Source: a virus. Taken from it: DNA of 64,000 nt. A program made the translations under genes and the position numbers. The notes under the pieces are model-generated. The model was not told where the DNA came from, searched no databases, and saw only the letters and a list, made by a program, of their open reading frames with translations. Positions 33,280-48,858 of this stretch are shown one piece after another. Within the stretch, counting starts at the first letter, position 1. Each line of letters opens with the position of its first letter. The stretch spans positions 32,001 to 96,000 of the IMG/VR virus record IMGVR_UViG_3300042007_000202. The stretch is one strand, 5' to 3'.

Positions 33280-33378
33280 GGGTGGTCTCCTCCGCATTGG
33301 GGAGACACGAGGTTAGCGTACGCAGCGCGCGTCCACCCGGCCGCCCGCCCGGCCGGGCGGGCGGCCGGGTGTCGGCGT

Positions 33379-33666: not shown

Positions 33667-34269
33667 TCAGTCCGGGAGGTCGAGCACGTCGTAGGGGTCG
33701 ATCTGCCCGCTGGTGGCGTGCTTGCGGGCCAGGTGCATGATCGCCTCGTCCAGCTCGGCGCGGAGGGCGTTGTCGTCCGGGGGGACGTGGGAGAAGCGGA
33801 CGGGGCCGCCGGAGCGGCCGGTGACGGCCACGTTCTGGTCGGGTTCCCCGAGCGCGAAGCGGATGAGCTTGCTGTAGGCGTCGGCCACGCGCACGGTCTC
33901 CGTGGCGTTGAGGTTCTGTCCGACCAGCGAGGTGATCGCTTCGGTGGCCTTCTCGTGGAAGGCGGCGGCCAGCTTCAGGTGGTCCTGGACCATCCGGCGC
34001 TGGCGCTCCATGATCGCCGCCACCCACTGGTCGTCCATGTGCCGGTCGAAGGCTTCGGCGCGGACGGTCCAGCGGAAGGTGTGGCTGTACTGCTGGGCGG
34101 TGCGGTGGGTGACGTTCAACCTTTCCGCGACCCGCTTCAAGGTTCGGGTGCGGCCCAGGTCGCGGTAGACGGTGAACTGGCCCCAGCGCTTGACGCTCTC
34201 TCCGGGCTGGCGGTCCCAGGGGTCGCGGCCGTCTTCGGCGAGCGTGATGGGCTCGCGCGGGGTGGGCAT
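33667..34269 (-). CDS. terS: Terminase small subunit
   Basis: PWDRQPGESVKRWGQFTVYRDLG..RTLKRVAE..WTVRAEAFD and VTGRSGGPV; upstream of terL. Confidence 0.75.
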   Translation of the reverse strand: MPTPREPITLAEDGRDPWDRQPGESVKRWGQFTVYRDLGRTRTLKRVAERLNVTHRTAQQYSHTFRWTVRAEAFDRHMDDQWVAAIMERQRRMVQDHLKLAAAFHEKATEAITSLVGQNLNATETVRVADAYSKLIRFALGEPDQNVAVTGRSGGPVRFSHVPPDDNALRAELDEAIMHLARKHATSGQIDPYDVLDLPD

Positions 34270-34775
34270 CAGGTCCTCTTCTCATCCGCGTGGATGGGGG
34301 GCGTGGGGTCCGCGAAGAAGCCCTTGCACACCTGGGCGGGCAGGTGCTGGGGGTCGGGGTTGTGGGGCATGTGGCAGCGTTCGCAGCGGGGGTGGGGGCT
34401 GGTGGCGGCGTCGGCGGGCGGGCTGTGCGGCATCACCTGGGGGGAGGGTCCGCGTCCGTCGGCGCAGACCCGGCAGAACGGCATCATGGCGTGGTTGTAG
34501 TAGGTGATCTTGGCGGAGCCGCACTGGACGCACCGGGCGGTGGCGTGCTCGGGGACGGTGGGGTCGGTGCGGTCCAGGGTGTTGTGGGCGAGGCGGACGG
34601 CCGTGGTGACGGCTTCCTGGAGGGGGGTGACGGGTGGGGGGCTGCCGTCGCCGGGGCCGGTGAGGAGGTGGGTGGCCTGGGCCTGGCAGGCGAGGTAGTT
34701 CCCGACGTGGATGAGGGTGGCCAGGGCGTGTTCCAGGGTGGTGCGGGCTTCGGTGAGGTCGTCGGTGCGGGTCAC
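34269..34775 (-). CDS. Hypothetical protein with CxxC motifs
   Basis: Coupled to both neighbours; CVQC, CRVC, CERC. Confidence 0.6.
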   Translation of the reverse strand: MTRTDDLTEARTTLEHALATLIHVGNYLACQAQATHLLTGPGDGSPPPVTPLQEAVTTAVRLAHNTLDRTDPTVPEHATARCVQCGSAKITYYNHAMMPFCRVCADGRGPSPQVMPHSPPADAATSPHPRCERCHMPHNPDPQHLPAQVCKGFFADPTPPIHADEKRT

Positions 34776-35713
34776 GCGCCCACCTCCTGGGGGGTGTCGG
34801 CGGCGTCCATCTGGGCGGCGAGCCGCTTGCGGTTGCGGGCTTCGACGCTGTTCACAGCCTTGGCGGCCTCCTCGCTGTAGCTGCCGCACTTGATCATGTT
34901 GGCGCGGAAGTAGCTGACCACGCTGATGCGTTCGGCTCCGCACCGCTCGCACATGCCGTTGCGGCGCTCGCCGCACTCGCAGAAGATCGCCGTGTTGCCG
35001 TGGTACTCGTGGGCGTCGATCAGGGCCAGGTCGCCGTGCTGCATGTCCAGCGCCACCCGGTACTTGGGGAAGACGAGCTGGCCGCCGGTGTAGGAGCCCT
35101 TGCGGAGGCAGGCCAGGGTGGAGAACCCGGCCTCCAGGTCGCCCGCGTCCAGGTGGGTGCCGGTGGGGTAGGTGTTGTTGACCGTGACCGTGCTGAAGGG
35201 TGTGCCGGGCACGACCCACTCGGGGTAGGTCTTGTTCACCTCGGCCATCTGCACGGCGTACCGGTCGGGCAGGCGGGCCTCGAAGTGCCGCGCGATGGCC
35301 TGGAGGAAGGGGCGTAGCGTCTCCCACTGGGGCAGGTTCGCGCCGGTCCACGCGGTCAGGCGGCAGTACTTCTGGTGTCCGGCGGAGTCGAACGCGCCGA
35401 TGATGGCGGAGGGGACGGGCAGGGCGCGGGACTTGTTGCCGGAGCCGGACTTGACCCTCCTTGACCCCGAGGCTGCTCCACGGTTCTCGGTCTTGGCGGA
35501 CTTCAGGGCGTGCAGGGTCTCGTAGACGCCGGGGAGTTCGGCTTCCTTGAGGAGCGCGCCGGGCAGGTACACCACGAGCGGGTGGCCGTTGGGCTTGAGG
35601 AGCTTGGCCGGGCCGGTGAGGAGGGCGTTGAAGTCTTCCTGGCCGAGGATCTTGCCGATCTTGGACTCCAGCTCGGCTGTGGGGATGCGGGTGCGCAGGC
35701 GGGCTTCAATCAC
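34772..35713 (-). CDS. TET/JBP-family 2OG-Fe(II) dioxygenase (5-methylpyrimidine oxidase)
   Basis: CRLTAWT; PFSTVTVNNTYPTGTHLDAGD (HxD); GGQLVFP; DAHEYHGNT (distal His); RISVVSYFR (2OG-binding Arg); GTG start at 35713. Confidence 0.85.
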   Translation of the reverse strand: MIEARLRTRIPTAELESKIGKILGQEDFNALLTGPAKLLKPNGHPLVVYLPGALLKEAELPGVYETLHALKSAKTENRGAASGSRRVKSGSGNKSRALPVPSAIIGAFDSAGHQKYCRLTAWTGANLPQWETLRPFLQAIARHFEARLPDRYAVQMAEVNKTYPEWVVPGTPFSTVTVNNTYPTGTHLDAGDLEAGFSTLACLRKGSYTGGQLVFPKYRVALDMQHGDLALIDAHEYHGNTAIFCECGERRNGMCERCGAERISVVSYFRANMIKCGSYSEEAAKAVNSVEARNRKRLAAQMDAADTPQEVGA

Positions 35714-36509
35714 GGCTCTCCCCCTTCTGAGCGGCGGCGTGGTGGCGCTGGGGCTTGGGGATGAAGGACAGTTCGCCGGGCCGCTTGGGGTGGGGGCGCA
35801 GGTACTGGGGCCAGCGTTCGGTGAGGCGGTTGACGAGGCCCATCTCGGCGCCGGGGGTGCGGTTGGCGACGGCTCCGCCCCGGTTGCTGTAGTGCTGGTA
35901 TCCGGCGACGTACATGTCCAGGCGGGCCACCTTCCCGTAGGTGTCCAGGTGGGCGCAGGTGTAGTCGTAGTCCTCCTTGAAGGGGAGGGTCTGGTCCCAG
36001 CGGGGTTCGGCCGTGTCGGCGGCGCACAGGGAGCCGATGATGAAGCCGTAGTCCAGGGTCCGGCCGCGCGCGAAGTAGGCGTTGTCGGTGGGTGGTACGC
36101 CGACCAGGTGCACGCTGCCGTTGAGGGCGGCGAGCATGGCGTTGCGGAGCTGGATCCAGGGGACGGGGCGGCCCTTGGGGTGGGAGTCGGTGACGTGCTT
36201 GAAGCCCTTGGCGTCGTCGTCGGTCTGGATGCACACGGCTCCGGCTTCAACCGCGTGGATCAGGGCCGCGTTGCGGGCGGCCGCAAGGGCGAACTCGCCC
36301 TGGCCGGGGTCGCGTACGGCGAGGACGGCGTCGGCTCCGGCGGCGGCGTAGTCGTGCCGCTCGTGCCACGGCACCACCCACGTGATCATGTCCGGGGCGA
36401 ACAGGGCCTGCATGGCGGGGACGTTGCCGGGGCGTCCGGCGCTGATGCAGTACACGCCGAAGGAGCGGCCGTCCACGGACTGGTACACGGCGATGGCGGG
36501 GGTGCTCAC
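35706..36509 (-). CDS. GT-A glycosyltransferase, TET-associated (TAGT/GREB1-like)
   Basis: CISAGRP, ARNAAL, IQTDDD (DxD), KEDYDYT, YSNRGG; overlaps the TET gene. Confidence 0.8.
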   Translation of the reverse strand: MSTPAIAVYQSVDGRSFGVYCISAGRPGNVPAMQALFAPDMITWVVPWHERHDYAAAGADAVLAVRDPGQGEFALAAARNAALIHAVEAGAVCIQTDDDAKGFKHVTDSHPKGRPVPWIQLRNAMLAALNGSVHLVGVPPTDNAYFARGRTLDYGFIIGSLCAADTAEPRWDQTLPFKEDYDYTCAHLDTYGKVARLDMYVAGYQHYSNRGGAVANRTPGAEMGLVNRLTERWPQYLRPHPKRPGELSFIPKPQRHHAAAQKGESRD

Positions 36510-36736
36510 GCGGTCCTCCGGCGGGGGGCGGGGCCGTACGGGCTGGCCCAGGCCGGGCGGTCGGGGCGGCGGCCGTTGAGGAGGGCCGCGTACCGCTGTA
36601 GGGCGCGGGCGGCGGCGCGGACGTGCTTGAGGATGGCGTCGATGGCGGCGTGCAGGCGCGCCTTCTGCTCGGGGGTGAAGCGGGGCACCTGGACGCGGGG
36701 GCGGGCGGGCGGCCGGGCGGCCGGGCGGGCGCTCAT
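36506..36736 (-). CDS. Small basic hypothetical protein
   Basis: Coupled at both ends; ..DRPAWASPYGP. Confidence 0.55.
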   Translation of the reverse strand: MSARPAARPPARPRVQVPRFTPEQKARLHAAIDAILKHVRAAARALQRYAALLNGRRPDRPAWASPYGPAPRRRTA

Positions 36737-37032
36737 GCGGGGTGTTCCTCCTTGAGGCGGTAGGTGACGGCGAACTCGCTGTCGGGGACGGGGTACAGGC
36801 GGCCCTTCCCGTCCATGACCAGGACGTCGCCGGGGGCGGCGTAGACCGTGCCGCAGCGGCTGACGAGGGGGACGCACGGGCCGAGGCCGGGCATGTGCAC
36901 GGGGTGCAGGACGCGGTTGAAGAATGTGCACGCTTCGGCCAGGTTGTCGCCGGTCCACACCATGGCCTGGACCTTGGTGGGTCGGTGGACGTAGAGCCCG
37001 GCCGGGCGGGCGGCCGGGCGGCCGGGCGTCAC
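36733..37032 (-). CDS. Phage hypothetical protein
   Basis: PTKVQAMVWTGDN..APGDVLV..G.LYPV...FAVTY, a common phage small-protein pattern. Confidence 0.65.
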   Translation of the reverse strand: MTPGRPAARPAGLYVHRPTKVQAMVWTGDNLAEACTFFNRVLHPVHMPGLGPCVPLVSRCGTVYAAPGDVLVMDGKGRLYPVPDSEFAVTYRLKEEHPA

Positions 37033-37595
37033 GAGGGGAGTCCCTTGAGGAAGCGCCAGCGGCTGTAGACGAGGAAGGCGTCGTGGAGGGCGTGGTGGGC
37101 GCCGTCGGGGGCGGACTGGGGCAGCTCGGTCTCCGTGACGCCCAGGCGGGAGGCCTCCTGCTGGATGTCGTGGGTGAAGCGGGGCATGTAGGGCGGGAGC
37201 GCGGCCATGGGCCCGTAGAGCTGGCAGAGGGCGACGTGGTCGTAGGCGCCGTAGTCGGCCCAGAGTTCGGCGGGTCCGGCCGCCGCCATGAAGGCGTCGA
37301 TGGTGCGGCGGAACTGGCCGAGGGGGCGGACGTCGGGGTGTTCGCGGTCGAGGTGGCCGAGTCCGGCCTGCATGCAGCGGCAGCCCGGTTTGCACGGGCG
37401 GACGGGCAGGTGGGGCCAGACGTGTTCCTTGAGGTAGGGGTGGGTGGCGACGCGGTGTTCGTCCAGGTCGCCGTTGACGACGTACAGGGAGGCGCCGCCT
37501 TGGGTGGTGGCTCCGAAGCTGATGGGGTCGATGAGGTGGCCGTCCTCCAGGAACTCGAAGTCGTAGAAGACGCGGTCGTGGGCGGGGGCGGTCAC
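37029..37595 (-). CDS. DEDDh 3'-5' exonuclease (Rv2179c-like)
   Basis: VFYDFEFLEDG, LWADYGAYDHVALCQLYG, HHALHDA. Confidence 0.8.
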   Translation of the reverse strand: MTAPAHDRVFYDFEFLEDGHLIDPISFGATTQGGASLYVVNGDLDEHRVATHPYLKEHVWPHLPVRPCKPGCRCMQAGLGHLDREHPDVRPLGQFRRTIDAFMAAAGPAELWADYGAYDHVALCQLYGPMAALPPYMPRFTHDIQQEASRLGVTETELPQSAPDGAHHALHDAFLVYSRWRFLKGLPS

Positions 37596-38419
37596 TGGGC
37601 GTCTCCGCCCACGCGGATGGCGGCCTGGCCGAGGATCTTGTCCCACTCCAGCGGCGGGCTGCCGTGGTGGGCGGCTTCCAGGACGACGTTGGCGATGCGG
37701 ACGGCTGAGCACATCAGCGGGCCGGTGGGCTGGTCGCCCAGGTGCTCGCGCATGGCTTCGATGTCCAGCAGGAGCTGGCTCTTGGCGTCGACCTCCATCA
37801 CGAACACCATCTCGGCCAGGCCCTTGGCGGCGAGGGACTGTTCTCCGGCTACGCGGGCGCCCCGGCTGGTCTCCTGTTCGGGGGTCTCGGCGTAGTGGGC
37901 GCCGGACGGTCCGGCCTCCATCACCACGCCCCCGTCGTCGTCTTCGTCGCCGGTGTCGGGCAGCTCGGGCTCCACGCGGGCCATCAGGTCGTCGAGGAAG
38001 GCGTCGTCGTAGCCGGTGCCTTCCAGGCCGGTGTCGCTGTCGGCGATGTCGGACAGGAGTTCCGCCAGCAGGTAGTCGTTGCGCTTGGAGAGCTCGGCGG
38101 TGCGGTTGGCGGCGGCGACGATCTTCTTGGCGCGGGTGTTGTCCACGTCCACGCGGATGGCGTCCAGGTGGGTCCAGCCGATCCTTTCGGCGGCCTGGGT
38201 GACGTGGTTGTGGGAGAGGATGTAGCCGGTCGACTTCTGCACGATGACCGGTTCGAACAGGCCGTTCTCTGCGAGGCTCTCCGCGATGGCGTCCACGTCG
38301 CCTTCGTTGGGGTTGCCGGGGAACTGGCGCAGCTCGCTGATGGGGATGCGCTCCACCTGGCTCAGGAGGGAGTGCAGGTTCTCCGCCGTGTCGGCGGCGG
38401 CCGGGGCCTTGGGGGTCAT
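37592..38419 (-). CDS. ParB/Srx-like N-terminal domain protein
   Basis: GNPNEGDVDAIAESLAENGLFEPVIV..ILSHNH..AA..G..AANRTAE..GTGY. Confidence 0.75.
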   Translation of the reverse strand: MTPKAPAAADTAENLHSLLSQVERIPISELRQFPGNPNEGDVDAIAESLAENGLFEPVIVQKSTGYILSHNHVTQAAERIGWTHLDAIRVDVDNTRAKKIVAAANRTAELSKRNDYLLAELLSDIADSDTGLEGTGYDDAFLDDLMARVEPELPDTGDEDDDGGVVMEAGPSGAHYAETPEQETSRGARVAGEQSLAAKGLAEMVFVMEVDAKSQLLLDIEAMREHLGDQPTGPLMCSAVRIANVVLEAAHHGSPPLEWDKILGQAAIRVGGDAQ

Positions 38420-38558
38420 CGGATCTCCGTGGATCAGGGTGGTTCGACTACCCCGAAGATAGCTCTAGGTGACTGATCCGAAGCTCCCCGTGACGACACG
38501 CGCCGCGCCTCCCTGGTCTGTCGGGTGGCGCGGCGCGTGGGGGGAAGGGGGAGGGTTG

Positions 38559-39560
38559 TCAGGTGACGGGCACGGGGCGGCCGTGGCCTCCGGTGGGGTC
38601 GGGGGTGGTCTCCTCGTCTTCTCCTCCCCCGCCGCCGGGGTGGCAGATGGGGCACCAGGGCTGGTAGCTGACGTGGAACTTGCTGAGCATCATGCCCGCG
38701 ACCATGATCAGGAAGGCGGTAGCGGAGGCGGATCGGCTCCACGGCTCAGGGATGTAGGGGGCGCCGCACATCAGGGCCAGGGCGACGAAGATGCCTCGGT
38801 CGCTGAGCTGGTGGCTGAGGAAGAACCGCCTGCGCCGGGCGGAGGCGTACTCGGGGGCGTCGGTGCGGAACTCGTGGACGCACTTCTCGCACAGGGACAT
38901 CGTGTGCTGCCGGTCCATGAACAGGGCGAGGGCGAGGAAGACGAGGGACAGACCGCTGATGAGGGGGGCGGGCCCGGCCTTGGGGAGGAAGAGGGTGACG
39001 AGCGCGAACAGCATGGCTGCCAGCGACAGGTGGAAGCTGCGGTGGATGAGCCCCTCGGCGTGCGTCTTGATCCAGGTGTGCAGTTCGCCGCTGCTGGCGC
39101 GGCCGGGGTCGTTGAGCTGGTAGAAGCGGCGGGCGGAGAGGTAGCCGATGAGCAGGAGCACCAGCGTGAAGTGGACGGCCTGGGAGGTGGCGCTGAACGT
39201 GGTGTCGGCGTCGGCGTCGGCGTCCCGTCCGTCGGACAGCAGGGGCAGGCCGACGAACAGGAAGAGGAGCAGCAGCGCCATGACGACCAGGCCGTACCTG
39301 CCGTAGGCCAGCCAGAGCCGGTGCAGTGGCGTGCGCCGTTCTGCGGGGACGGGTGTGCAGTAGGCGCACGCGGTGGTGTAGCGGATGTGGAGGTATGCCA
39401 TGCACAGCAGGGCCCCGGCGATGATGGCGAGGGTCAGGCTGGCGGCGTGGATGGCCCAGTGGCGGCCGTCGATGTCGGTCAGGGGGACCTGGACGGCGGA
39501 CACCAGCAGCGCTGCCTTGAGCGCGTGGTGGACGAGGGGGGATGGCAGGGACAGTTTCAC
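38559..39560 (-). CDS. Multi-pass membrane protein with repeated H..CxxC motifs
   Basis: Several TM segments; HIRYTTACAYC, HTMSLCEKC, QPWCPICH; GTGA-coupled to the Xre gene. Confidence 0.7.
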   Translation of the reverse strand: MKLSLPSPLVHHALKAALLVSAVQVPLTDIDGRHWAIHAASLTLAIIAGALLCMAYLHIRYTTACAYCTPVPAERRTPLHRLWLAYGRYGLVVMALLLLFLFVGLPLLSDGRDADADADTTFSATSQAVHFTLVLLLIGYLSARRFYQLNDPGRASSGELHTWIKTHAEGLIHRSFHLSLAAMLFALVTLFLPKAGPAPLISGLSLVFLALALFMDRQHTMSLCEKCVHEFRTDAPEYASARRRRFFLSHQLSDRGIFVALALMCGAPYIPEPWSRSASATAFLIMVAGMMLSKFHVSYQPWCPICHPGGGGGEDEETTPDPTGGHGRPVPVT

Positions 39561-39832
39561 TCGGTCTCTCCGGGTTTCTCGAACTTGACGACCAGCCGTA
39601 CGCCGAGGGCTTGGGCGATGCGCAGGAGCAGTCCGAGGGAGGGGATGCCGTTCGCGCTCTCCACGACGGAGATGCGCGGTTGCTTGGTGCCAGCCTTCTC
39701 GGCCAGCCCCCCCTGGCTGAGCCCTTGTTGGGTGCGCAGCGTGAAGACTTCCTGTGCGATGGCGTAGGCCAGTTCCCTCTCTTGATCGTTCTGCGTGCTT
39801 TCGACGCCGTGTGTTTTCTTGAGCACCTTCAT
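39557..39832 (-). CDS. Xre-family HTH regulator
   Basis: LRTQQGLSQGGLAEKAGTKQPRISVVES..PSLGLLLRIAQALG. Confidence 0.9.
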   Translation of the reverse strand: MKVLKKTHGVESTQNDQERELAYAIAQEVFTLRTQQGLSQGGLAEKAGTKQPRISVVESANGIPSLGLLLRIAQALGVRLVVKFEKPGETE

Positions 39833-39865
39833 AACGCAAACGTTATCTTATACGGGTTGCGTTAT
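39831..39865. promoter_or_regulatory. AT-rich inverted repeat (candidate Xre operator)
   Basis: ATAACGCAA-17 nt-TTGCGTTAT abutting the Xre start codon. Confidence 0.6.
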
Positions 39866-39981
39866 ATGCCAAACCGGCTGGCTGGCGGGCCGGGCGAGCG
39901 GAAAGGAGAGGCGCCGCCCCCGGCAGCGGGGGCGGCGCGTGCGCCGCTCCTGTGGGCGCCCCCCTGCTCCAGAGCGCGGTT

Positions 39982-40257
39982 TCAGGGGGTGTCGGAGGGA
40001 GGGGTCGTGCAGGCTCGCACGAGCACCTTCCAGACCTTCACGGCGGACGCCGGGGCCGGGGCCTCGGCGCCGCTCTCCCAGAGCGCCAGGCGCCACGTGG
40101 GGACGTTGCAGGCGCGGGCCATGTCATCCACCGACCAGCCCGACAGCGTCCGCAGCCGGGTGGCCGTGCCGTCGCGGAGGGCCTGGAGCGCCAGCCGGGC
40201 GCGGTCGTTGTCGGTCAGGCGCGGCGGCGGGAAACGGTCGTCGGCCATGGGCGTCAT
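39982..40257 (-). CDS. Xre/Cro-like HTH protein
   Basis: LRTLSGWSVDDMARACNVPTWRLALWESG..P. Confidence 0.7.
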   Translation of the reverse strand: MTPMADDRFPPPRLTDNDRARLALQALRDGTATRLRTLSGWSVDDMARACNVPTWRLALWESGAEAPAPASAVKVWKVLVRACTTPPSDTP

Positions 40258-40414
40258 GTTGCCCGGCCGGGCGGGCGGCCGGGCGGCGACACACCTACAG
40301 CGGTCGGCCCGTCTGCGCGGACAGCGCGCAGGCCCCCGGCCGGTGTGCCGCCTGGGGGACAGAGCGGCGTACCGGCCGGGGGCCTGCGCAGGCGGCGAAC
40401 AGGGGGGGTGGTGC

Positions 40415-40768
40415 TCAACCGCCGGGCGCCAAGCTACCGCGCTGGTGCCACAGATCCCAGGCCGCCAGCGCCTCGGCGCGCCGTTCGGCCGGGTTCACCG
40501 GCTGGAAGTTCTCGCCGCCGTGACAGGAGCACTTGCCGAGCTGGTGGAACGGGGAGCCCACGGTCGTGCGCAGGAAGCACTCCCGGTGGTAGGCGACGGT
40601 GCCGAGCTGGCCGCCTTCCAGGACGGCCGGAATGACGACCCCCCGGTCACCCTCCTCGAAGGCCAGCGCGCAGAAGCCGCACAGCCTCCCCACGGGGGTG
40701 TCGGTGCGGGGGGCGGTGTCGCACAGGGGTGAGTCCCAGGGCTCACCGAAGTACGGGCTGGGGGTCAC
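40415..40768 (-). CDS. Hypothetical Zn-binding protein
   Basis: CGFC..YHREC..CSCH. Confidence 0.6.
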   Translation of the reverse strand: MTPSPYFGEPWDSPLCDTAPRTDTPVGRLCGFCALAFEEGDRGVVIPAVLEGGQLGTVAYHRECFLRTTVGSPFHQLGKCSCHGGENFQPVNPAERRAEALAAWDLWHQRGSLAPGG

Positions 40769-40781
40769 GGTTCTCCGGTCG

Positions 40782-41150
40782 TCAGGTCACGTCGGCCGGG
40801 CGCTTGGCCTTGGGCGGGACGTAGGTGAACAGGGCGGGCTGGAACTCGCCGTACGGGAGCAGGACCTGCTCCGGCGCGGCCAGGATGCGCACGCACTTCT
40901 GGCAGTTGACCGGCTTCCGCACGGCGCGCAGCGCCGTGGGCGACCAGCCGTAGACCGGGGTGTGGCAAAGGGGCTGGGGTACGAGTTCGCCGTACAGCCA
41001 GCGCTCGGAGTCGACGGCGTGGACCACATCGCTGTCGCGGACGGACATGCGCTGGCCGTCCGCGAACTTGAGTCGCATCTCGCGGGCGAACGCGCGCAGG
41101 TCCGCGACCGCGATGAGCGGCACGTCCTGAGGGTTCGTCTCTGTCGTCAT
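40782..41150 (-). CDS. Hypothetical Zn-binding protein
   Basis: VVHAV..PLCH..VNCQKC..QPALF. Confidence 0.65.
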   Translation of the reverse strand: MTTETNPQDVPLIAVADLRAFAREMRLKFADGQRMSVRDSDVVHAVDSERWLYGELVPQPLCHTPVYGWSPTALRAVRKPVNCQKCVRILAAPEQVLLPYGEFQPALFTYVPPKAKRPADVT

Positions 41151-41249
41151 GCCCTTATTGTCACCCGTTCGGTGCAGCGGTATCCAGGGTTTTCGGTGTG
41201 AGTGCGCCGCCGTGACGGCGTGTCACGATGTGTGCACTCGCTGAATGTG

Positions 41250-41522
41250 TTATCGGGGCAGCGCCACGGCCAGGCATGCGACGGCGTGTGTGGTCAGCAG
41301 GGCCATGCCGATGGCGACAGTGGGGAGAGCGTAAGTGCAGTGCTGGCGCCACACCCGGCGGGCGCGACGCTCTGTAGCCGCTACGGCGGACCGGTTGCCC
41401 GAAAGGGCGGCGCCGTGCGTCAGGGCGCGCACCCGGCGGGCCCTGACGTCGGCCAGGAAGCTGACGCCGAGGGTGACGGCGGCCACCACTGTGACGGTCG
41501 CCGGGGAGAGGGGCCACATCAT
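41250..41522 (-). CDS. Small membrane protein
   Basis: Hydrophobic N- and C-terminal segments; GGGGAGG RBS. Confidence 0.45.
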   Translation of the reverse strand: MMWPLSPATVTVVAAVTLGVSFLADVRARRVRALTHGAALSGNRSAVAATERRARRVWRQHCTYALPTVAIGMALLTTHAVACLAVALPR

Positions 41523-41539
41523 TCTGTACGCCTCCCCTC

Positions 41540-41821
41540 TCACGCCTGCTCGATGCGTTCGTGCGCTCCGCCCCACCATCCCGGCCGCTGCCGGGCGCGC
41601 GCCCGGTGCGCCCAGAAGGCTGCCGCTCCCCCGTTCACGCTGGCGCAGAGCCAGTTCACCCAAGAGGGGAGGCCGCTGGTGTACCAGGCGGTGACGGCCA
41701 GGGCGGAGTACAGCGCGCAGGCGGCGGTGCAGAAGCCGGGGCCGGTGGCTCTCCCGGCGAAGTAACCGAGTACGGCCGCCGCAGCCAGGCTTGCGGCGAA
41801 CAGGGTGGACGGGGTCAGCAA
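41540..41821 (-). CDS. Small membrane protein
   Basis: Three hydrophobic segments; TTG start with AGGA RBS. Confidence 0.55.
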   Translation of the reverse strand: MLTPSTLFAASLAAAAVLGYFAGRATGPGFCTAACALYSALAVTAWYTSGLPSWVNWLCASVNGGAAAFWAHRARARQRPGWWGGAHERIEQA

Positions 41822-42108
41822 CGGTCGTTCCTATCTGCGTGGATCAGGGAGGCGAGGTGGGCGTGCCGGGCCCGGCGGGCCGGGGCGGTGCGGGCGGCCA
41901 GGGCGAACAGGCAGGCGACCCCGCCGGGCATGAGCGCCCACCAGGTGCCCGTGCAGGCCACGGCGCCGGTCACCGCGAACTGGACCATGGCCGACAGGCG
42001 GTAGAAGCCCTCCGCCCCCACGCGGCGCGGCGCCAGCACGGAGACGCACGCCAGGGCGACCTGGAGGGTGGCGCCCACGGCGATGGCCCAGAGGGCGGAG
42101 TCGGGCAT
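41815..42108 (-). CDS. Small membrane protein
   Basis: Three hydrophobic segments; TGATG coupling. Confidence 0.6.
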   Translation of the reverse strand: MPDSALWAIAVGATLQVALACVSVLAPRRVGAEGFYRLSAMVQFAVTGAVACTGTWWALMPGGVACLFALAARTAPARRARHAHLASLIHADRNDRC

Positions 42109-43187
42109 CAGGCGACTTCCACCGTCTGGAGGAACTGCCCCAGGGCGTGGACTTCGCGGCCGGTGTGCTTGTGGCGGGTGAGCTGCCTGGCCTTGAGGCG
42201 CCCGAGCGCCTTGTGCGCGTCGGACTTCACGCAGTAGGCGAAGCCGTCCCCGGGGATGCTCAGGAGCAGGAAGCGGATGCGGTGGGCGGCCATCTCGGGG
42301 TCGGGGTCCAGGGTGGCCTCCCCGATCCGCATGAGCTGACGGTCCATCCAGCCCAGGGTGGGGTCTTCCAGGGCGTGGGCCTGGGCCTCGGCCTGGCGGT
42401 CGGCGTCACCGAGGGCGGCGTACGCTCCGGCCGAGGAGAACCACACCTTGGTCGCGCTGTAGTGGAGGGCGTGGTGCGGCTCCAGGGCGCCGTGCACGCG
42501 GGGGATGTTGGCCTGGGCGGTGGCCAGGTCGGCGCGGGCGGCTTCCTTGTTGCCGAAGACGGCGTGGGCGTTGGCGCGGTGGGTGTAGGCCATGAGCAGT
42601 GCCGGGCCGCCGTGGTGTTCGGCCGCCTTGATGATGTTCTCCGTCCGGCGGAGCACGGTGTTCCACTTGCCGGAGTACATGGGGACCCAGTTGGCCTGGG
42701 CGCTGATGAAGGCGCGCAGGTCGGGGTTGGCGTCCCCGGCGGCGTGGTGGCCGCGCGAGTACAGCTCGGTCGCGGCGCGCATGTGGCCGAAGTCCACGTA
42801 GCACCCGGCGGCGAAGGCGGCGGCTTCGGCGGCGAGGCGGCGGGCCTCGTTGCGCCGGTTGGCCGGGGCCCCGTCGCGCAGGGCGTTGGCCTGGGCGTAG
42901 AGCCACAGACCGGAGTCGCGGACCTCGTGATGGTTGGTCATGCCGGGCTCGGTGACGTAGTGCCGGGCCAGGTAGTCCAGCTCGTGGCGGGCGCGGGTGA
43001 AGCGCTCCTGCCAGGTCCCGGACTGGAGGGTGTGGTCGCCGTCGGGGGTTTCGGCGGCGCTGGCCGCCCATTCGGGAAGGCCGGTGGCGGCGAAGCCGAG
43101 GGCGGCGGCGATGAGTGCGCGTCGGCGCATGATGACAGGGTCCTTGTCGTCCGGAGGTGCAGAGGCGGATGAGCGGATGAGGTACAC
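42108..43187 (-). CDS. TPR-like helical protein (Streptomyces XRE-TPR regulator body, no HTH)
   Basis: MRRRALIAAA motif; AAFAAGCYVDFG..AATELY; YMPMYSG-type segment; paralogue of the adjacent gene. Confidence 0.65.
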   Translation of the reverse strand: MYLIRSSASAPPDDKDPVIMRRRALIAAALGFAATGLPEWAASAAETPDGDHTLQSGTWQERFTRARHELDYLARHYVTEPGMTNHHEVRDSGLWLYAQANALRDGAPANRRNEARRLAAEAAAFAAGCYVDFGHMRAATELYSRGHHAAGDANPDLRAFISAQANWVPMYSGKWNTVLRRTENIIKAAEHHGGPALLMAYTHRANAHAVFGNKEAARADLATAQANIPRVHGALEPHHALHYSATKVWFSSAGAYAALGDADRQAEAQAHALEDPTLGWMDRQLMRIGEATLDPDPEMAAHRIRFLLLSIPGDGFAYCVKSDAHKALGRLKARQLTRHKHTGREVHALGQFLQTVEVA

Positions 43188-43224
43188 GACTTCGCTCCTT
43201 GGAAGGCGTGCCGGGTGGCAGGAG

Positions 43225-44334
43225 TCAGTGGCCGGTGATGCGGAGCAGGTGCAGGCGGAGTGCTTGGACGGTGTCGCTGCGGGGGTCGCGCTGGGCGGCG
43301 CGGATCGCGACGGCGCGGGCGCGGCCGACGATGGGCTCGGGGGGGTGGTCGTATCCGCGCAGAATGGTGAGGGCGTGGTGGGCGGCGGCGGCCGGGTCCC
43401 GGGTGACTTCGGCGCGGCCCATGTCGAGCATCGGCCGGTGCATCTGGCTGACGCTGGAGTCGCTCATGGCGGCTTCGTAGGCCTTGGCGTGACGGCGGCC
43501 GTCACCGAGGCTGGCGTAGACCTCGGCGGTGGCGAGGCGGAGCTTGACCCACGCGAAGCGCTGGGGGTGGTGGGGGGCGGGCAGGCTGGCGCTCCCCGCG
43601 TCCCTGTAGTGGCCCATCGAGCCGTAGGCCAGCCGCATGGCCTGCTCGGTGGTGTGGGTGTCCCCCAGGGCCGCGTAGGAGCGCGCCAGCAGGGCGTAGG
43701 CGGCCACGGCCGCGCGCCCGCCGGGCCGGGTGGCCTTGGCCAGGTGGCTGAGGGCGGTGGTGGCGGTGTCGATGGAGCGCTCGAACTTCCCCGCGTACAG
43801 CGGCATGTAGGCGCGGCCGGTGTAGATGGTCGCCGTCATCTCGTGGTTCCCGGCTTCCTGGGCGGCGCGGAGGGCCGCGCCGTACATCTTGACCGCTGCG
43901 GCGCGCTGGCGGCGGTCGCCGTAGATCATGGCGCACTGGCGGGCGGCCTCGGCTTCCACGGTCAGGGCGCGGCGGAACTGTTCGGCGTTGCGGGCGGAGC
44001 GCTTGGCCGCGACGTGCGCCTGGGCCCACTGCCACAGCGCCACGTCGAGCAGTTCGGCGCGGGCGGGGGCGGAGGCGGGGCTGACGTAGGCGGCGCCGGT
44101 CTTCCAGATGTCGGCGGCGATGTCGTTGATGGCGGTGGGCAGGGTGACGGACCCGTCGAGCCTGTTGGGCGCGTTGACGGCGGCCTCGGCGAGGTTCGCG
44201 GGGAGTAACCCGGCTCCGGTCGCGGAGACGACAGCAGCGATGAAGCGGCGGCGTCGCATCGGCTCCTCCTTGGCTCTGACTCGGGGCGCCCAGCTCGGGC
44301 GCCGGGGCACGGGGGGCGGTGTCGCTGTCGTCAT
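43225..44334 (-). CDS. TPR-like helical protein, paralogue of 42108..43187; contains a TTA codon
   Basis: MRRRRFIAAVV; RAYMPLYAG; ARSYAALGD; TTA at 44206-44208. Confidence 0.65.
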   Translation of the reverse strand: MTTATPPPVPRRPSWAPRVRAKEEPMRRRRFIAAVVSATGAGLLPANLAEAAVNAPNRLDGSVTLPTAINDIAADIWKTGAAYVSPASAPARAELLDVALWQWAQAHVAAKRSARNAEQFRRALTVEAEAARQCAMIYGDRRQRAAAVKMYGAALRAAQEAGNHEMTATIYTGRAYMPLYAGKFERSIDTATTALSHLAKATRPGGRAAVAAYALLARSYAALGDTHTTEQAMRLAYGSMGHYRDAGSASLPAPHHPQRFAWVKLRLATAEVYASLGDGRRHAKAYEAAMSDSSVSQMHRPMLDMGRAEVTRDPAAAAHHALTILRGYDHPPEPIVGRARAVAIRAAQRDPRSDTVQALRLHLLRITGH

Positions 44335-44347
44335 GATGGCTTGGTCC

Positions 44348-44962
44348 TCAGTCGAGGGGGGCCGTGCGGGCGGCCAGTTGGCGGGAACCGAACGTGGCGC
44401 GGGCCGCCCACACGGCGAGCGTCGCGCGGAATGCGGGCAGGAGCAGGGGGGCGTGGTCGGCCTGTTCGCACAGGCGCGCCCACTGCCACTCGGCCTCCCG
44501 GGTGTTCCTGCTGTGAAGGTGCAGGGCGAAGGTCTGGAGCTGGAGGCGTGCGGCGGCGAAGGCGGCGTGCTGTTCGGCGGGGGGTGTGGCCAGCCGCCGG
44601 TGGGCGGCCGTGCTCTCCAGCAGCGCGGCGGCCTCCAGGTCGCCGTCGGGGACGGCCCAGGACAGGGAGGGCGCGTCCGTGCTGGGGCGGCCCTGGCAGA
44701 CGCGGCGGACGAGTTCCGTGCACAGGAAGAACTCGCCCGGCGCGCCGTAGTGCACGGCCGCCCACTCCCCGTGGCTGACGGCCTCACGGGGGCGGCCGGT
44801 GGCCGCGCAGACGAGCAGGCGGCGGGCGTGGTAGCCGATGTCTTCCGCGCCCTCCAGGTCCACGGTGCGGTGCTTTCCGGTGCAGCCGTCGCCCTCGTGG
44901 TGAGCGCTACGGCCGGGCGGTGGAGTCATCGGGGCCTCACTCTCTGTGTCAGTGGTACCCAT
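44348..44962 (-). CDS. Hypothetical protein
   Basis: Follows promoter-like cassette at 44954-45002; true start may be the second Met. Confidence 0.55.
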   Translation of the reverse strand: MGTTDTESEAPMTPPPGRSAHHEGDGCTGKHRTVDLEGAEDIGYHARRLLVCAATGRPREAVSHGEWAAVHYGAPGEFFLCTELVRRVCQGRPSTDAPSLSWAVPDGDLEAAALLESTAAHRRLATPPAEQHAAFAAARLQLQTFALHLHSRNTREAEWQWARLCEQADHAPLLLPAFRATLAVWAARATFGSRQLAARTAPLD

Positions 44963-45030
44963 GATTATCGGTCGCGCATGCCGTGTGCAAGCTGCATGTC
45001 ACATTACCGCCCGGCTTTGTGCTCAGCCGG

Positions 45031-45831
45031 TTACGGTTTGCGACGGAGCGCCGACCGGGCCATGTATCCGCCGCCGTTGTTCCAGCCGGGGCTGATGGAC
45101 GCGTCGGAGACCACCTCCCGCCCCTGGGCCACCTCCTCGTAGCGGGCGGCCATGGCGTCGTGGTGACGAACGCCGTAGGCGGCCGTGCCCAGGATGGCGG
45201 CGCCCTTGATCAGCTCCGTGGGGTCCTTGCGGTCGGGCGACTTGAACAGCTCGGCTGCGATGGCGCGCCGGTCGCGGGAGGTGTGAGCGGCGACCAGGGC
45301 GGCATGCAGGTAGGGGAGCCACCGCTTGGTCAGGTTGATACCGGCCTCGGTCTCGGCCAGGCCTTGCTGGAGCGCCAGGTGGGGGGCGAGGCCCTCCTGC
45401 TGGAGCTTCTGCTGCTTGTCGGCGGCCATGCGCAGCCGCTGCTCTTCGGTGGCCTCGATGACGATGAGCGTTCGCAGGTCCACGGCTCCGACCAGGTCGC
45501 GGAAGCGGCTGTCGCGGGTGAGCGGGGCGGTCTCGATCTGCGCGATCCACTCGGACATCACGTCGATCGGGCCTCGCCAGCCGTAGTCGTTCCACAGCAG
45601 CCTGAGGGCGCCGATCACGCGTTCCAGGTCGTCCATGTGCGCCACGGTCGCGATCGCCTGGGCGTATTCGGCGCTGTCACGCTTGGGCGGCGCGGGGGGC
45701 TGCGCGTCGTCCACTGCGGCCAGGGCGAGAGCCAGGAACTCGGCCAGGAAACCGGCCGCGCCCTCCTCCGCGCCGGTGTCGATGACGGTGGCGACGTTGG
45801 GGTCGAACAGGTCGGCCAGGAATTCATCCAT
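45031..45831 (-). CDS. Hypothetical helical protein
   Basis: AAGGAG RBS; MDEFLADLFDP... Confidence 0.7.
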   Translation of the reverse strand: MDEFLADLFDPNVATVIDTGAEEGAAGFLAEFLALALAAVDDAQPPAPPKRDSAEYAQAIATVAHMDDLERVIGALRLLWNDYGWRGPIDVMSEWIAQIETAPLTRDSRFRDLVGAVDLRTLIVIEATEEQRLRMAADKQQKLQQEGLAPHLALQQGLAETEAGINLTKRWLPYLHAALVAAHTSRDRRAIAAELFKSPDRKDPTELIKGAAILGTAAYGVRHHDAMAARYEEVAQGREVVSDASISPGWNNGGGYMARSALRRKP

Positions 45832-45902
45832 GTTCACGGGGCTCCTTGATGTGCGGACGCCCGCCAGCCGGGCGGCTGGCGGGCGGGTGGGGCAGTGTGT
45901 GG

Positions 45903-46763
45903 TCAGTCGCGTGCGGGAGCGGCCTTGGTGTCGCCCTCGGCGCACATGGCGTTCGCGGTCTCGGCGTGCCACCAGAACGTTCCGTAGCGGCCGTCGGTAT
46001 GCAGGATGCGCCCGGCGCAGTGCGCGCACCGGACGAGCGGCTGCGACTCGATGCAGGCCTTGGTTCCGGCGTCCAGGATCGTGTGCAGCACGGCCACGCT
46101 GAGGTCGCCGCTCGCGTGGATGTGCACGGATGCCTCGCGCTGGGAGGGCGGCAGTGCGGCCGTCTTGTCTCCCGGCGGGTTGTCCAGGTACGCCGTGAAG
46201 CTGGCTTCGCCGCCCTTGCGGCCGTTGCCGAGCAGGGCCGCCTTGCGCAGGGCCCGGCGCAGCCCCGGGAAGCGGCGGGCTATCTCGTCGCGCTCCGCCT
46301 TCTTGGCGGCGGCGCGGGCCTCCCGATCGGCGTTCTGCGTCGCCGTCTTCTCGCTGGCGAGCGCTTGCAGGTAGTCGCGGGCCTGCTGGGGGTCGACCAG
46401 GTATGTGGTGCGGCCGGGGCCCCACGGGCTGGGGGCCGGTAGGCCGTTGTCCTTGGTGAGGATGATGCGTCGTTCGGGGCCGCCCTCCACCGTCTCGGCG
46501 GAGATGTAGTGGGGGCCGACTGCGGCGGCCTGCGCTCCGGGCAGTTCGACGGTCCAGTGGCGAGACGGTGTCAGTTCGAGGAGCGCGCCGGAGGCGCAGG
46601 CGGCGCGGAGCCACTTTCGGGCGGTGCCCGTGGTGACGTGGGTGCGCTCCGCGACCTTCTCTGCGACCTCCGCCATGGAGAGCAGGCCGGGCGTGGCGGC
46701 GTGAATCGCCTCCAGGGCGATCGTGGCCGCTTGGTCGGCCTTCGTCGGTGGGGTGGTGGGCAT
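45903..46763 (-). CDS. wHTH-like N-terminus plus C-terminal CxxC protein
   Basis: LLSMAEVAEKV..TARKWLRAACASG; CAHC..WWH..C. Confidence 0.6.
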   Translation of the reverse strand: MPTTPPTKADQAATIALEAIHAATPGLLSMAEVAEKVAERTHVTTGTARKWLRAACASGALLELTPSRHWTVELPGAQAAAVGPHYISAETVEGGPERRIILTKDNGLPAPSPWGPGRTTYLVDPQQARDYLQALASEKTATQNADREARAAAKKAERDEIARRFPGLRRALRKAALLGNGRKGGEASFTAYLDNPPGDKTAALPPSQREASVHIHASGDLSVAVLHTILDAGTKACIESQPLVRCAHCAGRILHTDGRYGTFWWHAETANAMCAEGDTKAAPARD

Positions 46764-46856
46764 CGCGTTCTCCCGTCCGTGTGGCGGCGGGTGTCCACCG
46801 GCGTCCCGGCCGGGCGGACCCGGCCGGGACGCTGTCCTTCCCGCCCCTCAATGCGT

Positions 46857-46905
46857 GAGACACGAGATTAGCATTGGGTGGACGCGTATGCAAACCTAAT
46901 GTCTC
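46857..46905 (-). promoter_or_regulatory. Promoter cassette with inverted GAGACAY arms
   Basis: GAGACATTAGGT-TTGCAT-17 nt-TAATCT-CGTGTCTC. Confidence 0.7.
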
Positions 46906-46915
46906 ATTAGGGTGT

Positions 46916-47704
46916 TCAGCGGCGTTTCTTCCCGCAGTCGGGGCAGCACCCGCGCTTCTTGCTCCGTCTCTTCTCCGAGCGGCCCGCACTCTTCCAGCCG
47001 TCTACCAGCTCCGGCTGCATCCGGCGGAGGTCACCCACGCCCGCGCGGACAGTCCAGGCCAGCGATCCGCTCAGATCCGGCGGGGGGTTCACCATGTCCT
47101 CCACCCACTCGTTGCCCATAGGCATGGCCCTGGTCCGCCAGTAGAGGTGAGTCGCTGACGCGCCCAGGCAGGCCGCCCACACGCGCCGGTCCTTGTAGTG
47201 GGCGTTCAGCCAGCGAGTGAAGACCGCCCGCCCCTTGTCCATGTCCGCGAGGGACACCGCCGGGCGCAGCACCGTGGCGGCCTCGTCCCAGTACGGGGCC
47301 AGGGACCGCAGCAAGTCCCGCAGCTCCTCCCCCTCGCGGATGGACTCCGCCAGGGCTTCATGCCGGGGCAGCCCCGGGTGCGCCTTCGGGGCCAGCTCGT
47401 GTGCCTGCCTCAGGATGAAGTCGTCATCCAGAAGGCTCACGACGTCGTCCAGGCGCACATTGCCGAAGGCGTCGACACACCGGTCCGGGACGTTGATCGA
47501 CAGAGCGCCGATCAGCTCCACCATCACCTCCACCGCGCACCGCCAGCCGCGCCACTGGAACACCGGCTCGATGGCGGCGTCGAACTCGTCCTTGGTGTGC
47601 GTCGCGCAGACGTTGAGGATGATCCGGCGGTAGGCGGCGCTGCCCAAGGGCGGCGGCTCGTCCGCGATGAACTCCCCTTCCTGTTCGGCCTCAAAGATCG
47701 GCAT
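46916..47704 (-). CDS. Hypothetical protein with C-terminal CPDC
   Basis: MPIFEAEQEG...; GGGGAG upstream. Confidence 0.65.
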   Translation of the reverse strand: MPIFEAEQEGEFIADEPPPLGSAAYRRIILNVCATHTKDEFDAAIEPVFQWRGWRCAVEVMVELIGALSINVPDRCVDAFGNVRLDDVVSLLDDDFILRQAHELAPKAHPGLPRHEALAESIREGEELRDLLRSLAPYWDEAATVLRPAVSLADMDKGRAVFTRWLNAHYKDRRVWAACLGASATHLYWRTRAMPMGNEWVEDMVNPPPDLSGSLAWTVRAGVGDLRRMQPELVDGWKSAGRSEKRRSKKRGCCPDCGKKRR

Positions 47705-48314
47705 CCCTGGTCTCCCCCTTTTCGTCGTCCACGTCGGGCACATCCGCGTGGATATGCGCCATGAACAGTTCGTGCTCCATCTCCGCCTCCGTGACCTGGC
47801 TGTAGCGCAGCCGGACAGCGGCTTCCGCCATCAGGATCAGGAGCGTCAGTTTCAACCTGCGCGGCTCCTCTCTGGCGTAGTCGGAGATCACGCGGACCAG
47901 TTCGGCAAGATCGCCCTTGCTGGCGGCCTGGGCTACCGCGTTGCAGGCGGCGCCCAGTTGATCCCCCTCGGCCACGAGCCGCGCCACCGTCTCCGGGCTG
48001 GGCTCCTCCCCCTCCACGCGCCGGATCAGCTGCGTCATCTGCTCGTAGCCGAGCGAGTCGGGGCGCCCCGGGGGAGAGGGCAGGAGCGCCCTGGCGGACC
48101 CCCACACGTACGCCATCCGCGCCAGGCCCGCGCTGCCCCAGATGGCTCCCATGTCGGCCATGTAGCCACGGGCGGCGTCGTGCCAGCCGGTGGCGTAGGC
48201 GGTCGACGCCAGGAGGGCGGCATGAGTGGCCTCGTTGATCATCCGGTCGAAGGTCTCTTCGGTGAGATCGATCCGGCGCTTCATGTCGCCCTCGCAGCGG
48301 TCACACATGATCAT
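47691..48314 (-). CDS. Hypothetical helical protein
   Basis: ATGA-coupled to the RHH gene. Confidence 0.65.
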   Translation of the reverse strand: MIMCDRCEGDMKRRIDLTEETFDRMINEATHAALLASTAYATGWHDAARGYMADMGAIWGSAGLARMAYVWGSARALLPSPPGRPDSLGYEQMTQLIRRVEGEEPSPETVARLVAEGDQLGAACNAVAQAASKGDLAELVRVISDYAREEPRRLKLTLLILMAEAAVRLRYSQVTEAEMEHELFMAHIHADVPDVDDEKGETRDADL

Positions 48315-48844
48315 TCCTCTTCTAGTTCGATTCCCCTCGCCTCCAGGTGGGCGCGCAGCGCCGTTTCCACCTCGTCGTAACGGCGAGTGCCGTCGCGTTC
48401 CACCAGGGCCGCCAGGCCGTCGATGAGGAAGGAGGGGACCTGAACGGTGAGCTTGTCTCGGGGGATGCGCTTGGTCCGCTCCCGGGGCAGTACGGCCGGT
48501 GCGCCGCGCTGAGCCAGGGCGCCGGTGGTGCGGCCGGTGCGCGCGGGCAGCCGCTTGGGCTCGGCCGTTTCCGGCTCCAGCTCCATCACGCTGAAACCGC
48601 CCTGTAGGCCGGTCTCCTCGGACACCCGCGCGACGGCGGCGTCCGCGTCCGGCGCGTAGACGCGGGCCAGCTCCCGGCTGGAGCGGTTGTCGGTGGCCGC
48701 CCACAGCCGGTCCGGCGCCGTCGCCCGCTTGCCCTTGCGTCGTGCCTGGTGGGCGGCGAAGTCCGGGTCCTCCTCGGCGGTCGGCGCTGGGGAGGCGAGC
48801 AGGGAGCCGAGTCCTGCGGCGCGGGAGTTCCTGTTGCTGCTCAT
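48311..48844 (-). CDS. Partition partner with C-terminal ribbon-helix-helix (type Ib ParB/ParG-like)
   Basis: GLGSLL N-terminus; KLTVQVPSFLIDGLAALVERDG..YDEVETAL; directly downstream of parA. Confidence 0.65.
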   Translation of the reverse strand: MSSNRNSRAAGLGSLLASPAPTAEEDPDFAAHQARRKGKRATAPDRLWAATDNRSSRELARVYAPDADAAVARVSEETGLQGGFSVMELEPETAEPKRLPARTGRTTGALAQRGAPAVLPRERTKRIPRDKLTVQVPSFLIDGLAALVERDGTRRYDEVETALRAHLEARGIELEEE

Positions 48845-48858
48845 GCGGTGATGTCCTC

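Follow-up and report, generated by a model that had tools for sequence, protein, structure and literature searches.

A ParB-linked dioxygenase and glycosyltransferase operon predicted to hypermodify thymidine after replication in a candidate Streptomyces phage-plasmid

In trypanosomatids, base J is made by the thymidine hydroxylases JBP1 and JBP2 and the glucosyltransferase JGT. Phage 5mYOX dioxygenases oxidise thymine (T) to 5-hydroxymethyluracil (5hmU) post-replicatively, in vivo as well as in vitro (O'Toole et al., PNAS 2026; PMC13229309), and one subclass of them, clade C1, exemplified by the pair 5mYOX176/ParB176, needs a ParB homologue that consists of a nucleotide-binding domain (NBD) and a C-terminal domain (CTD), has no DNA-binding domain, and serves to activate the dioxygenase on double-stranded DNA (dsDNA) (PMC13229309). 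The commonest neighbours on mined 5mYOX contigs were glycosyltransferases (GTs, 31%), ParB (27%) and terminase (19%), C5-cytosine methyltransferases (C5-MTs) being rare at 6% (PMC13229309). Pyle et al. (Cell Rep 2024; 10.1101/2023.12.21.572611) also reported ParB and terminase near methylase-free GT-A/5mYOX pathways, with a methylase near only ~20-30% of 5mYOX contigs; phage DNA GT-A enzymes share a defined R...DDD...EDY motif and are structurally similar to the base-J glucosyltransferase (10.1101/2023.12.21.572611). A further group of phages, PhiW-14, SP10, ViI and M6, carries 5-hydroxymethyldeoxyuridine (5hmdU) DNA kinases and amino-acid:DNA transferases (AADTs) (PMC8256090). Here we describe an operon with a TET/JBP dioxygenase, a TAGT-type GT and a ParB-like protein in a 64,000-nucleotide stretch of viral DNA (the window), bases 32001-96000 of the 108,671-bp IMG/VR record IMGVR_UViG_3300042007_000202 (CheckV completeness 99%).

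With moderate confidence we read this locus as an operon with which a temperate Streptomyces phage or phage-plasmid hypermodifies thymidine after replication; T would be converted to 5hmU with the aid of ParB and then glycosylated. The gene order and coupling, the family and fold assignments, the absence of a methylase, and the conserved architecture of ParB, tailoring cassette and dioxygenase are established here. Eight minus-strand genes form a run, in the order ParB-like, exonuclease, g088, g087, GT, dioxygenase, Zn-ribbon open reading frame (ORF) g084 and small terminase (TerS), and are joined by stop/start overlaps: five GTGA/ATGA junctions of 4 nt, an 8-nt overlap of GT and dioxygenase, and a single nucleotide (TGATG) between g084 and TerS (Table 1). 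An earlier note on this DNA, made from the letters alone, had described eight overlapping genes in this order, and gene calls based on G+C content at third codon positions (GC3), with junctions checked directly in the sequence, bear it out; the motifs it listed, ARN, DDD and KEDYD in the GT, HxD..H..R in the dioxygenase and CxxC pairs in g084, are likewise all present, with catalytic residues conserved in the homologue alignments and D97 of the GT variable.

Compared by published description, the window appears to fit the ParB-dependent T-dioxygenase class in every context feature examined. As in clade C1, there is a ~300-aa TET/JBP dioxygenase with a C-terminal tail (in 5mYOX176 the tail follows C280, to which C276 of the window enzyme may correspond), a co-oriented ParB built of NBD, linker and CTD with M. 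xanthus and C. crescentus ParB as best structural matches, no neighbouring C5-methylase, sister loci with P-loop kinase and AADT, and often a terminase nearby. It departs from clade C1 in its tailoring enzyme, a TAGT-type GT where kinase, AADT and glutamine amidotransferase (GATase) are stressed in the published class; in its ParB, which has N-P-N for QPR and H-N-H-V for GERR; in the exonuclease among the genes between ParB and dioxygenase; and in being a 71% G+C actinomycete element. Phage GT-A DNA GTs (PF20691) share with the window the GT-A fold, the R...DDD...EDY motif and a gene position beside the 5mYOX, but glycosylate 5-hydroxymethylcytosine (5hmC) arising from a C5-MT/5mYOX pair, whereas the acceptor in the window is predicted to be 5hmU. 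The base J pathway resembles the predicted one in converting T to 5hmU with a TET/JBP dioxygenase before O-glycosylation by a GT-A enzyme, post-replicatively and on DNA; the likeness of the window GT to JGT itself rests on the published comparison (10.1101/2023.12.21.572611). JBP proteins, however, have J-binding and SWI2/SNF2 domains, while the window dioxygenase has neither and is accompanied by a ParB-like helper instead, and the base J mark serves transcription control, whereas here the target is a virus genome and the role likely anti-restriction. PhiW-14, SP10, ViI and M6 share the acceptor, 5hmU in DNA (predicted here), and families PF18751 and PF18724 occur in sister loci of the window dioxygenase; the 5hmU of those phages is supplied by a dUMP hydroxymethylase before replication, in contrast to the post-replicative dioxygenase of the window, where a GT replaces kinase and AADT.

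The dioxygenase is predicted to be a thymine-to-5hmU DNA enzyme. A six-frame search of the whole record with PF12851 returned the same single match, and Tet_JBP is the protein's only domain. H187-x-D189, H238 and R262 are invariant across 21 homologues of 55-100% identity, and R262 is, from its position, the putative 2-oxoglutarate ligand. Also invariant are C245, C247, C255 and C258, which form a Cys4 insert placed after the second His and before the Arg, together with C276, the last invariant Cys of this alignment, which is followed by a 37-aa tail. A PDB-sequence profile search with the dioxygenase alignment gave chance matches only, with no TET/JBP chain, and is uninformative at such distance. 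The family numbers more than 1000 homologues at no fewer than 561 IMG/VR loci, most of them high in G+C, and its isolate carriers are actinomycetes; among isolated phages there are only 13 matches, all at 40% identity or less. These are mostly labelled 'SNF2 DNA repair protein'; for Cr30 (KF301602, Caulobacter), DLP_6 (KU682439, Stenotrophomonas), S-CBWM1 (MG450654, Synechococcus) and HTVC112P (MN698246, Pelagibacter) the labels are 'SNF2 DNA repair protein' or 'DnaJ chaperone', probably misannotations passed on from record to record. The dioxygenase match in HTVC112P has a ParB-like gene beneath or beside it.

Thymine as the substrate is argued for by what is missing from the record and by what accompanies the dioxygenase elsewhere. 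The earlier note had seen no C5-MT in the window; this holds, and a six-frame search of the whole 108,671-bp record (PF00145, PF01555, PF00303) found no C5-, N4- or N6-methyltransferase and no thymidylate-synthase-type domain, nor did Pfam scans of the record's other genes find a methyltransferase or thymidylate-synthase-type domain. Pre-replicative synthesis of 5hmU or 5hmC was rejected, there being no thymidylate-synthase-like gene in the record. Only 3 of 49 related viral records hold a C5-MT, never adjoining the dioxygenase; among the 13 records with a completeness of 90% or more, 10 lack one. PF00145 has no match in the 8.9-Mb genome of Streptomyces andamanensis or in the genomes of Haloechinothrix alba and Microbispora sp., all carriers of relatives, so that thymine would be the sole 5-methylpyrimidine available in at least some carrier hosts. 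S. andamanensis carries the closest cultured relative, a syntenic operon (ParB-g088-g087-GT-dioxygenase-CxxC-TerS-TerL, the last being the large terminase) with identities of 73-85% for ParB, GT, dioxygenase, TerS and TerL.

The slot between ParB and dioxygenase, followed through ~50 related loci, holds P-loop kinase 3 (PF18751; 22 ORFs; 23 loci) and AADT (PF18724; 16 ORFs; 20 loci) and, at loci without the window-type GT, also pyridoxal-phosphate (PLP) and flavin (FAD) enzymes, phosphatases, an amidoligase and further TAGTs; these slot genes are a thymidine-hypermodification toolkit. On a maximum-likelihood tree of the dioxygenase, the window groups with two GT-bearing relatives (L008 and L007), and this group is nested in a well-supported clade of 12 rows, where kinase/AADT cassettes are found at four loci, GTs at four and PLP/FAD at three. 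At least eight changes of the GT label are required on the tree, and this interleaving indicates that the tailoring cassette has been swapped behind a conserved ParB-dioxygenase pair.

The GT appears to be a divergent branch of the TAGT/phage GT-A DNA enzymes and is predicted to add a sugar to 5hmU in DNA. Its motifs, R79-N80 (ARN), D97-D99 (DDD) and K178-E-D-Y-D182, make up the R...DDD...EDY pattern, and R79, D98, D99, E179, D180 and Y181 are invariant in 34 homologues; position 97 is Asp in the window GT and its close relatives and Ser in many other homologues. Half of these homologues (17/34) match Pfam TAGT at E <= 0.01, the best at 3.7e-10. A PDB-sequence profile search with the GT alignment returned chance matches only. 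The structural comparison with TAGT proposed in the earlier note came out in its favour: the best match to the GT model in BFVD is a TAGT-domain protein (E 4e-19, TM 0.76/0.83, root-mean-square deviation 2.5 A over 239 columns), and 8 of the top 18 matches are named TAGT. Against PDB GT-A enzymes (GalNAc-T2, BcsA, WrtF, AvpGT) the model gives VIA Z values of 13-14.5 over 200-230 residues.

The ParB-like protein is predicted to be the activator of the dioxygenase. Its AlphaFold2 (AF2) model has a mean confidence (pLDDT) of 75.5 overall and 85-93 in the N-domain, and comprises a ParB/Srx-fold N-domain (~20-150), a disordered acidic linker (~150-178) and a helical C-domain (~180-265). No helix-turn-helix (HTH) or other DNA-binding domain is found in the model, where one short helix (139-149) and the linker separate the two domains. 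The best Foldseek matches are M. xanthus, B. subtilis and C. crescentus ParB, Noc and KorB (E 3e-6 to 1e-4, over ~140 columns of the N-domain), and profile alignment with Spo0J 6sdk gives E 1.4e-6. Segregation ParB CTPases have Box I/II motifs, a central parS-binding HTH and an adjacent ParA, none of which belongs to the window ParB. A role as partner of the record's ParA-type ATPase was rejected, the two genes being 10 kb apart, the HTH lacking, and the ParB-like gene tracking the dioxygenase across unrelated phages. Of 81 related loci, 59 have a ParB homologue upstream of the dioxygenase and co-oriented with it, while TerL is downstream in 25 and the window-type GT is present in 17. This recurrence, with the published ParB-like activators (PMC13229309), supports the functional tie between ParB and dioxygenase that the earlier note had suggested. 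Its further idea, that ParB places the mark at specific sites, finds no support, given a protein with no recognisable DNA-binding domain and a published role in activation on dsDNA.

Several points weigh against the proposed pathway. The GT on its own scores below the Pfam TAGT (PF20691) cut-off, at 13.6 bits against 27.5 (E 0.063), and the acceptor of characterised phage GT-A DNA enzymes is 5hmC rather than 5hmU (10.1101/2023.12.21.572611). The window ParB has N36-P-N38 at the QPR position of Box I and H70-N71-H72-V73 at the GERR position of Box II (GERRxR), and the CTP-binding arginines are missing, so that it may differ from ParB176 in its working, or may not be an activator. Membership in clade C1 would rest on context features. 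A 5hmC target has also been put forward for kinase and AADT cassettes (PMC8256090), and the no-C5-MT result for hosts depends on how complete their genome assemblies are. Finally, both 5hmU and the glycosylated base are predicted only, for this phage and its close relatives alike.

The missing arginines also bear on the alternative that survives best, in which the ParB-like protein assists packaging or partition, for example as a nuclease or as a partner of the pac site or terminase, and the dioxygenase and GT act alone. This alternative would accommodate the five genes' distance between ParB and dioxygenase, the homology of the N-domain to ParB domains fused to N6/N4 methyltransferases, and the arrangement on pSITFR-21c (NZ_CP134608.1), a circular 103.5-kb plasmid of Streptomyces sp. 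ITFR-21 with a TerL 50% identical to that of the window, where a ParB-N gene lies directly upstream of the terminase genes and no TET/JBP is present in the 15.4-kb stretch around the terminase. It sits poorly, however, with the occurrence of ParB upstream of the dioxygenase in diverse phages at more than twice as many loci as have a detected downstream TerL, with the lack of an HTH for recognising sites, and with a ParA-type ATPase that lies far off and has small genes of its own downstream. Mutating the equivalent NTP-motif residues of ParB176 did not abolish activation (PMC13229309), a result with which a window ParB without the arginines fits; across 60 dioxygenase-linked ParBs, the rule at the GERR position is G-N-[H/N]-T, GEHR occurring in 3. 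We consider an accessory role for ParB improbable.

Less probable still, in our estimate, is a pathway that ends at 5hmU or a further oxidised uracil, with the GT modifying a non-DNA target such as a virion protein or a cell-wall polymer. GT-A folds are generic, the best PDB matches are protein or polysaccharide GTs, the GT itself is under the Pfam threshold, and in the literature surveyed we found no phage glycosyl-5hmU product and no phage GT shown to glycosylate 5hmU. Against this stand the TAGT proteins as best viral structural matches, with scores far above any PDB GT; the position of the GT in exactly the slot between ParB and dioxygenase that DNA kinases and AADTs fill in sister loci; its 8-nt overlap with the dioxygenase start; and a motif common to DNA GT-A enzymes and JGT (10.1101/2023.12.21.572611).

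That the dioxygenase instead acts on 5-methylcytosine (5mC) made by a methylase of the host, or by one of the phage that escaped detection, with glycosyl-5hmC as the product of the GT, has in its favour that phage TET clades A and B oxidise 5mC with neighbouring GT-A/GT-B enzymes glycosylating 5hmC (PMC8256090; 10.1101/2023.12.21.572611), that published T-dioxygenases oxidise 5mC too in vitro (PMC13229309), and that the genomes of S. hazeniae and S. africanus, which carry relatives, do hold C5-MTs, but is very unlikely in view of a 108.7-kb record without PF00145 or PF01555, a syntenic operon in a host (S. andamanensis) without PF00145, 46 of 49 related records without a C5-MT and none with one adjoining the dioxygenase, and the 5hmU-type tailoring genes of sister loci.

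Signals on either side of the run bear on when such an operon would be expressed. The GC-rich hairpin ahead of the ParB-like gene probably terminates the gene before it and delimits the transcription unit at its 5' end; g082 is probably the last gene of this unit, and the perfect palindrome beyond g082 is probably a terminator or attenuator closing the ParB-to-g082 unit. The 16-nt motif GCTAACYTCRTGTCTC (at most 2 mismatches) has five copies in the window against 0.04 expected, at 17994-18009(+), 33302-33317(-), 46857-46872(-), 46890-46905(+) and 60452-60467(-), all in spacers ahead of gene blocks, and is on this positional pattern probably part of a phage promoter or transcript start. A sequence similar to it occurs near base 80 of the whole record. 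TerS is tied to the modification genes by translational coupling, while TerL, with the palindrome and a motif copy lying between it and the run, appears to have its own start.

In the post-replicative thymidine pathway that we favour, the dioxygenase would hydroxylate thymine of phage dsDNA at its 5-methyl group, with Fe(II), 2-oxoglutarate and O2, to give 5hmU; the ParB-like protein would activate it on dsDNA, by analogy with 5mYOX176/ParB176; and the TAGT-type GT-A enzyme would move a sugar from a nucleotide-sugar onto the new hydroxyl, giving glycosyl-5hmU, an analogue of base J. The mark is probably made while the DNA is readied for packaging, as the coupling to TerS and the strong hairpins bracketing the unit suggest, and would likely shield the injected genome from host nucleases. 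For this operon we infer substrate, product, ParB requirement, timing and biological role. The earlier note had proposed a thymine substrate and glycosylation to a base-J-like mark, and both the comparative tests and the literature lend this support, the product remaining a prediction. A more ambitious joint reading, which we hold to be doubtful, is that glycosyl-5hmU is written only from the TerS-coupled, hairpin-bracketed operon acting late, so that resident plasmid-state DNA would be unmodified and capsid-bound DNA base-J-like, a lifestyle-dependent epigenetic switch served by a ParB-fold activator that would have lost all canonical CTP-binding arginines in nature and be nucleotide-independent.

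The exonuclease, g087, g088 and the CxxC ORF follow the module in its nearest relatives only, and were rejected as core parts of it on that ground. The exonuclease, whose PF16473 score of 25.1 bits falls just short of the cut-off of 27, occurs in just 4 of 81 related loci, is adjacent only in L008, and is absent from the S. andamanensis operon. g088 is kept only in the closest relatives (L008, 79%; L087, 46%), g087 is found in the same two loci only (51-52% identity), and so is g084 (72% and 55%), for which neither Pfam nor PHROG gave a match and ESM Atlas was uninformative (best score 0.84). In two other related loci, L007 and L021, TerS lies directly 3' of the dioxygenase.

Table 1. Features of the modification locus and its surroundings, in window coordinates
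Feature	Position	Strand	Evidence and remarks
Large terminase TerL, 529 aa	31398..32987	(-)	phrog_38 1.1e-80; PF03237 7e-9; not translationally coupled to module
16-nt intergenic motif copy GCTAACCTCGTGTCTC	33302..33317	(-)	just upstream of g081 and TerL; one of five window matches
Perfect 38-bp GC-rich palindrome	33334..33371	(.)	100% self-complementary; RNA fold dG -51.7 kcal/mol, z -6.0
Small ORF g082, 80 aa	33379..33621	(-)	45 nt past TerS; GC3 0.94; no Pfam/PHROG match; 57% identity in L008
Small terminase TerS, 200 aa	33667..34269	(-)	phrog_6299 1e-24; last gene of coupled run; TGATG overlap with preceding ORF
Zn-ribbon-like g084, 168 aa	34269..34775	(-)	two CxxC pairs and CxxC/His-rich tail; between dioxygenase and TerS
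TET/JBP 2OG/Fe(II) dioxygenase (5mYOX), 313 aa	34772..35713	(-)	PF12851 E 5.8e-19, 68.4 bits vs cut-off 34.9; phrog_24024 1e-54
GT-A-fold glycosyltransferase, TAGT type, 267 aa	35706..36509	(-)	phrog_842 1e-7; AF2 pLDDT 91.8, pTM 0.88
g087, 76 aa, Arg/Pro/Ala-rich	36506..36736	(-)	GC3 0.99; no Pfam/PHROG match
g088, 99 aa	36733..37032	(-)	weak: phrog_1810 1e-6, phrog_419 1e-4, both function-unknown families
DEDDh-type 3'-5' exonuclease, Rv2179c-like, 188 aa	37029..37595	(-)	phrog_2259 1.8e-34; PF16473 E 1.6e-5
ParB-like protein, 275 aa	37592..38419	(-)	phrog_723 2e-36; Pfam ParB_N weak at 0.005
GC-rich hairpin	38490..38545	(-)	in 139-nt spacer upstream of ParB-like gene; RNA fold dG -36.7 kcal/mol, z -5.8 vs shuffles
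ParA/MipZ-type ATPase	48862-49551	(-)	only ParA-type ATPase; own small genes downstream; 10 kb from ParB-like gene

The element as a whole is plausibly a Streptomyces phage with a phage-plasmid lifestyle. Almost all genes of the window lie on the minus strand, and a full head and packaging set is present in the record. Pfam scans add an amidase/LysM lysin and, outside the window, a RepL/MarR-like winged-HTH (wHTH) protein, a tyrosine recombinase and HU; no DNA polymerase, primase or helicase is recognisable in the record. No terminal direct or inverted repeats were found at the record ends, which are thus uninformative on topology. Close relatives are stand-alone contigs of ~103-111 kb in Streptomyces assemblies, and the S. 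andamanensis contig matches genes from the interior of the record at its two ends, making it circularly permuted relative to the record, with no host flank. Homologues of TerL are present on 40 Streptomyces plasmids. The phage-plasmid label of the earlier note is thus plausible from the ParA-type ATPase, the RepL-like wHTH, the stand-alone contigs and the related circular plasmids, without being proven for this record. A megablast search with the 8-kb region found no match among 50,697 phage records, and that collection holds no close cultured relative; culturable carriers of close relatives are Streptomyces andamanensis PCU 347, S. longwoodensis and Streptomyces sp. NPDC059278.

On pSITFR-21c, the stretch at 38255-53667 (L101) has ParB-N, PAPS-reductase-family, Mg-chelatase-domain and DNA cytosine methyltransferase genes upstream of the terminase. 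These genes appear to form another kind of ParB-linked DNA-modification module at the same genomic position, and such modules seem to have a hot spot in front of the terminase. Elsewhere in the window, imperfect direct repeats of ~100-270 bp (77-96% identity) at 10481-12100 fall inside a 1050-aa ORF, 9223-12375(-), which is probably a large structural gene for a repeat-domain tail or fibre protein. Segments of 76-184 bp are repeated at 82-88% identity from window 63855-64000 to record 95855-98519 (L006) across the small genes g126-g129, and represent either paralogues among these small genes or the regions upstream of them. The early region encodes, at 52761-53795(-), a DUF932 protein (PF06067, E 3.8e-37) of a family common on plasmids and integrative elements.

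Post-replicative oxidation of thymine in phages was demonstrated only in 2025-26, and the co-occurrence of ParB, GT, 5mYOX and terminase without a methylase is already published from metavirome mining, this type of pathway having been described in 2024-2026. The locus therefore opens no new category. It is a GT-bearing member of the ParB-linked dioxygenase family; it gives comparative evidence for repeated swapping of GT, kinase/AADT and PLP/FAD cassettes behind one ParB-dioxygenase pair; and its ParB is a natural case without the CTP-motif arginines. Its close relatives reside in culturable Streptomyces, so that the predicted base could be sought directly in native DNA. If the mark does prove confined to the capsid, a bacterial virus, and one with a culturable host, would for the first time have yielded a chemically defined glycosylated thymine of post-replicative origin.

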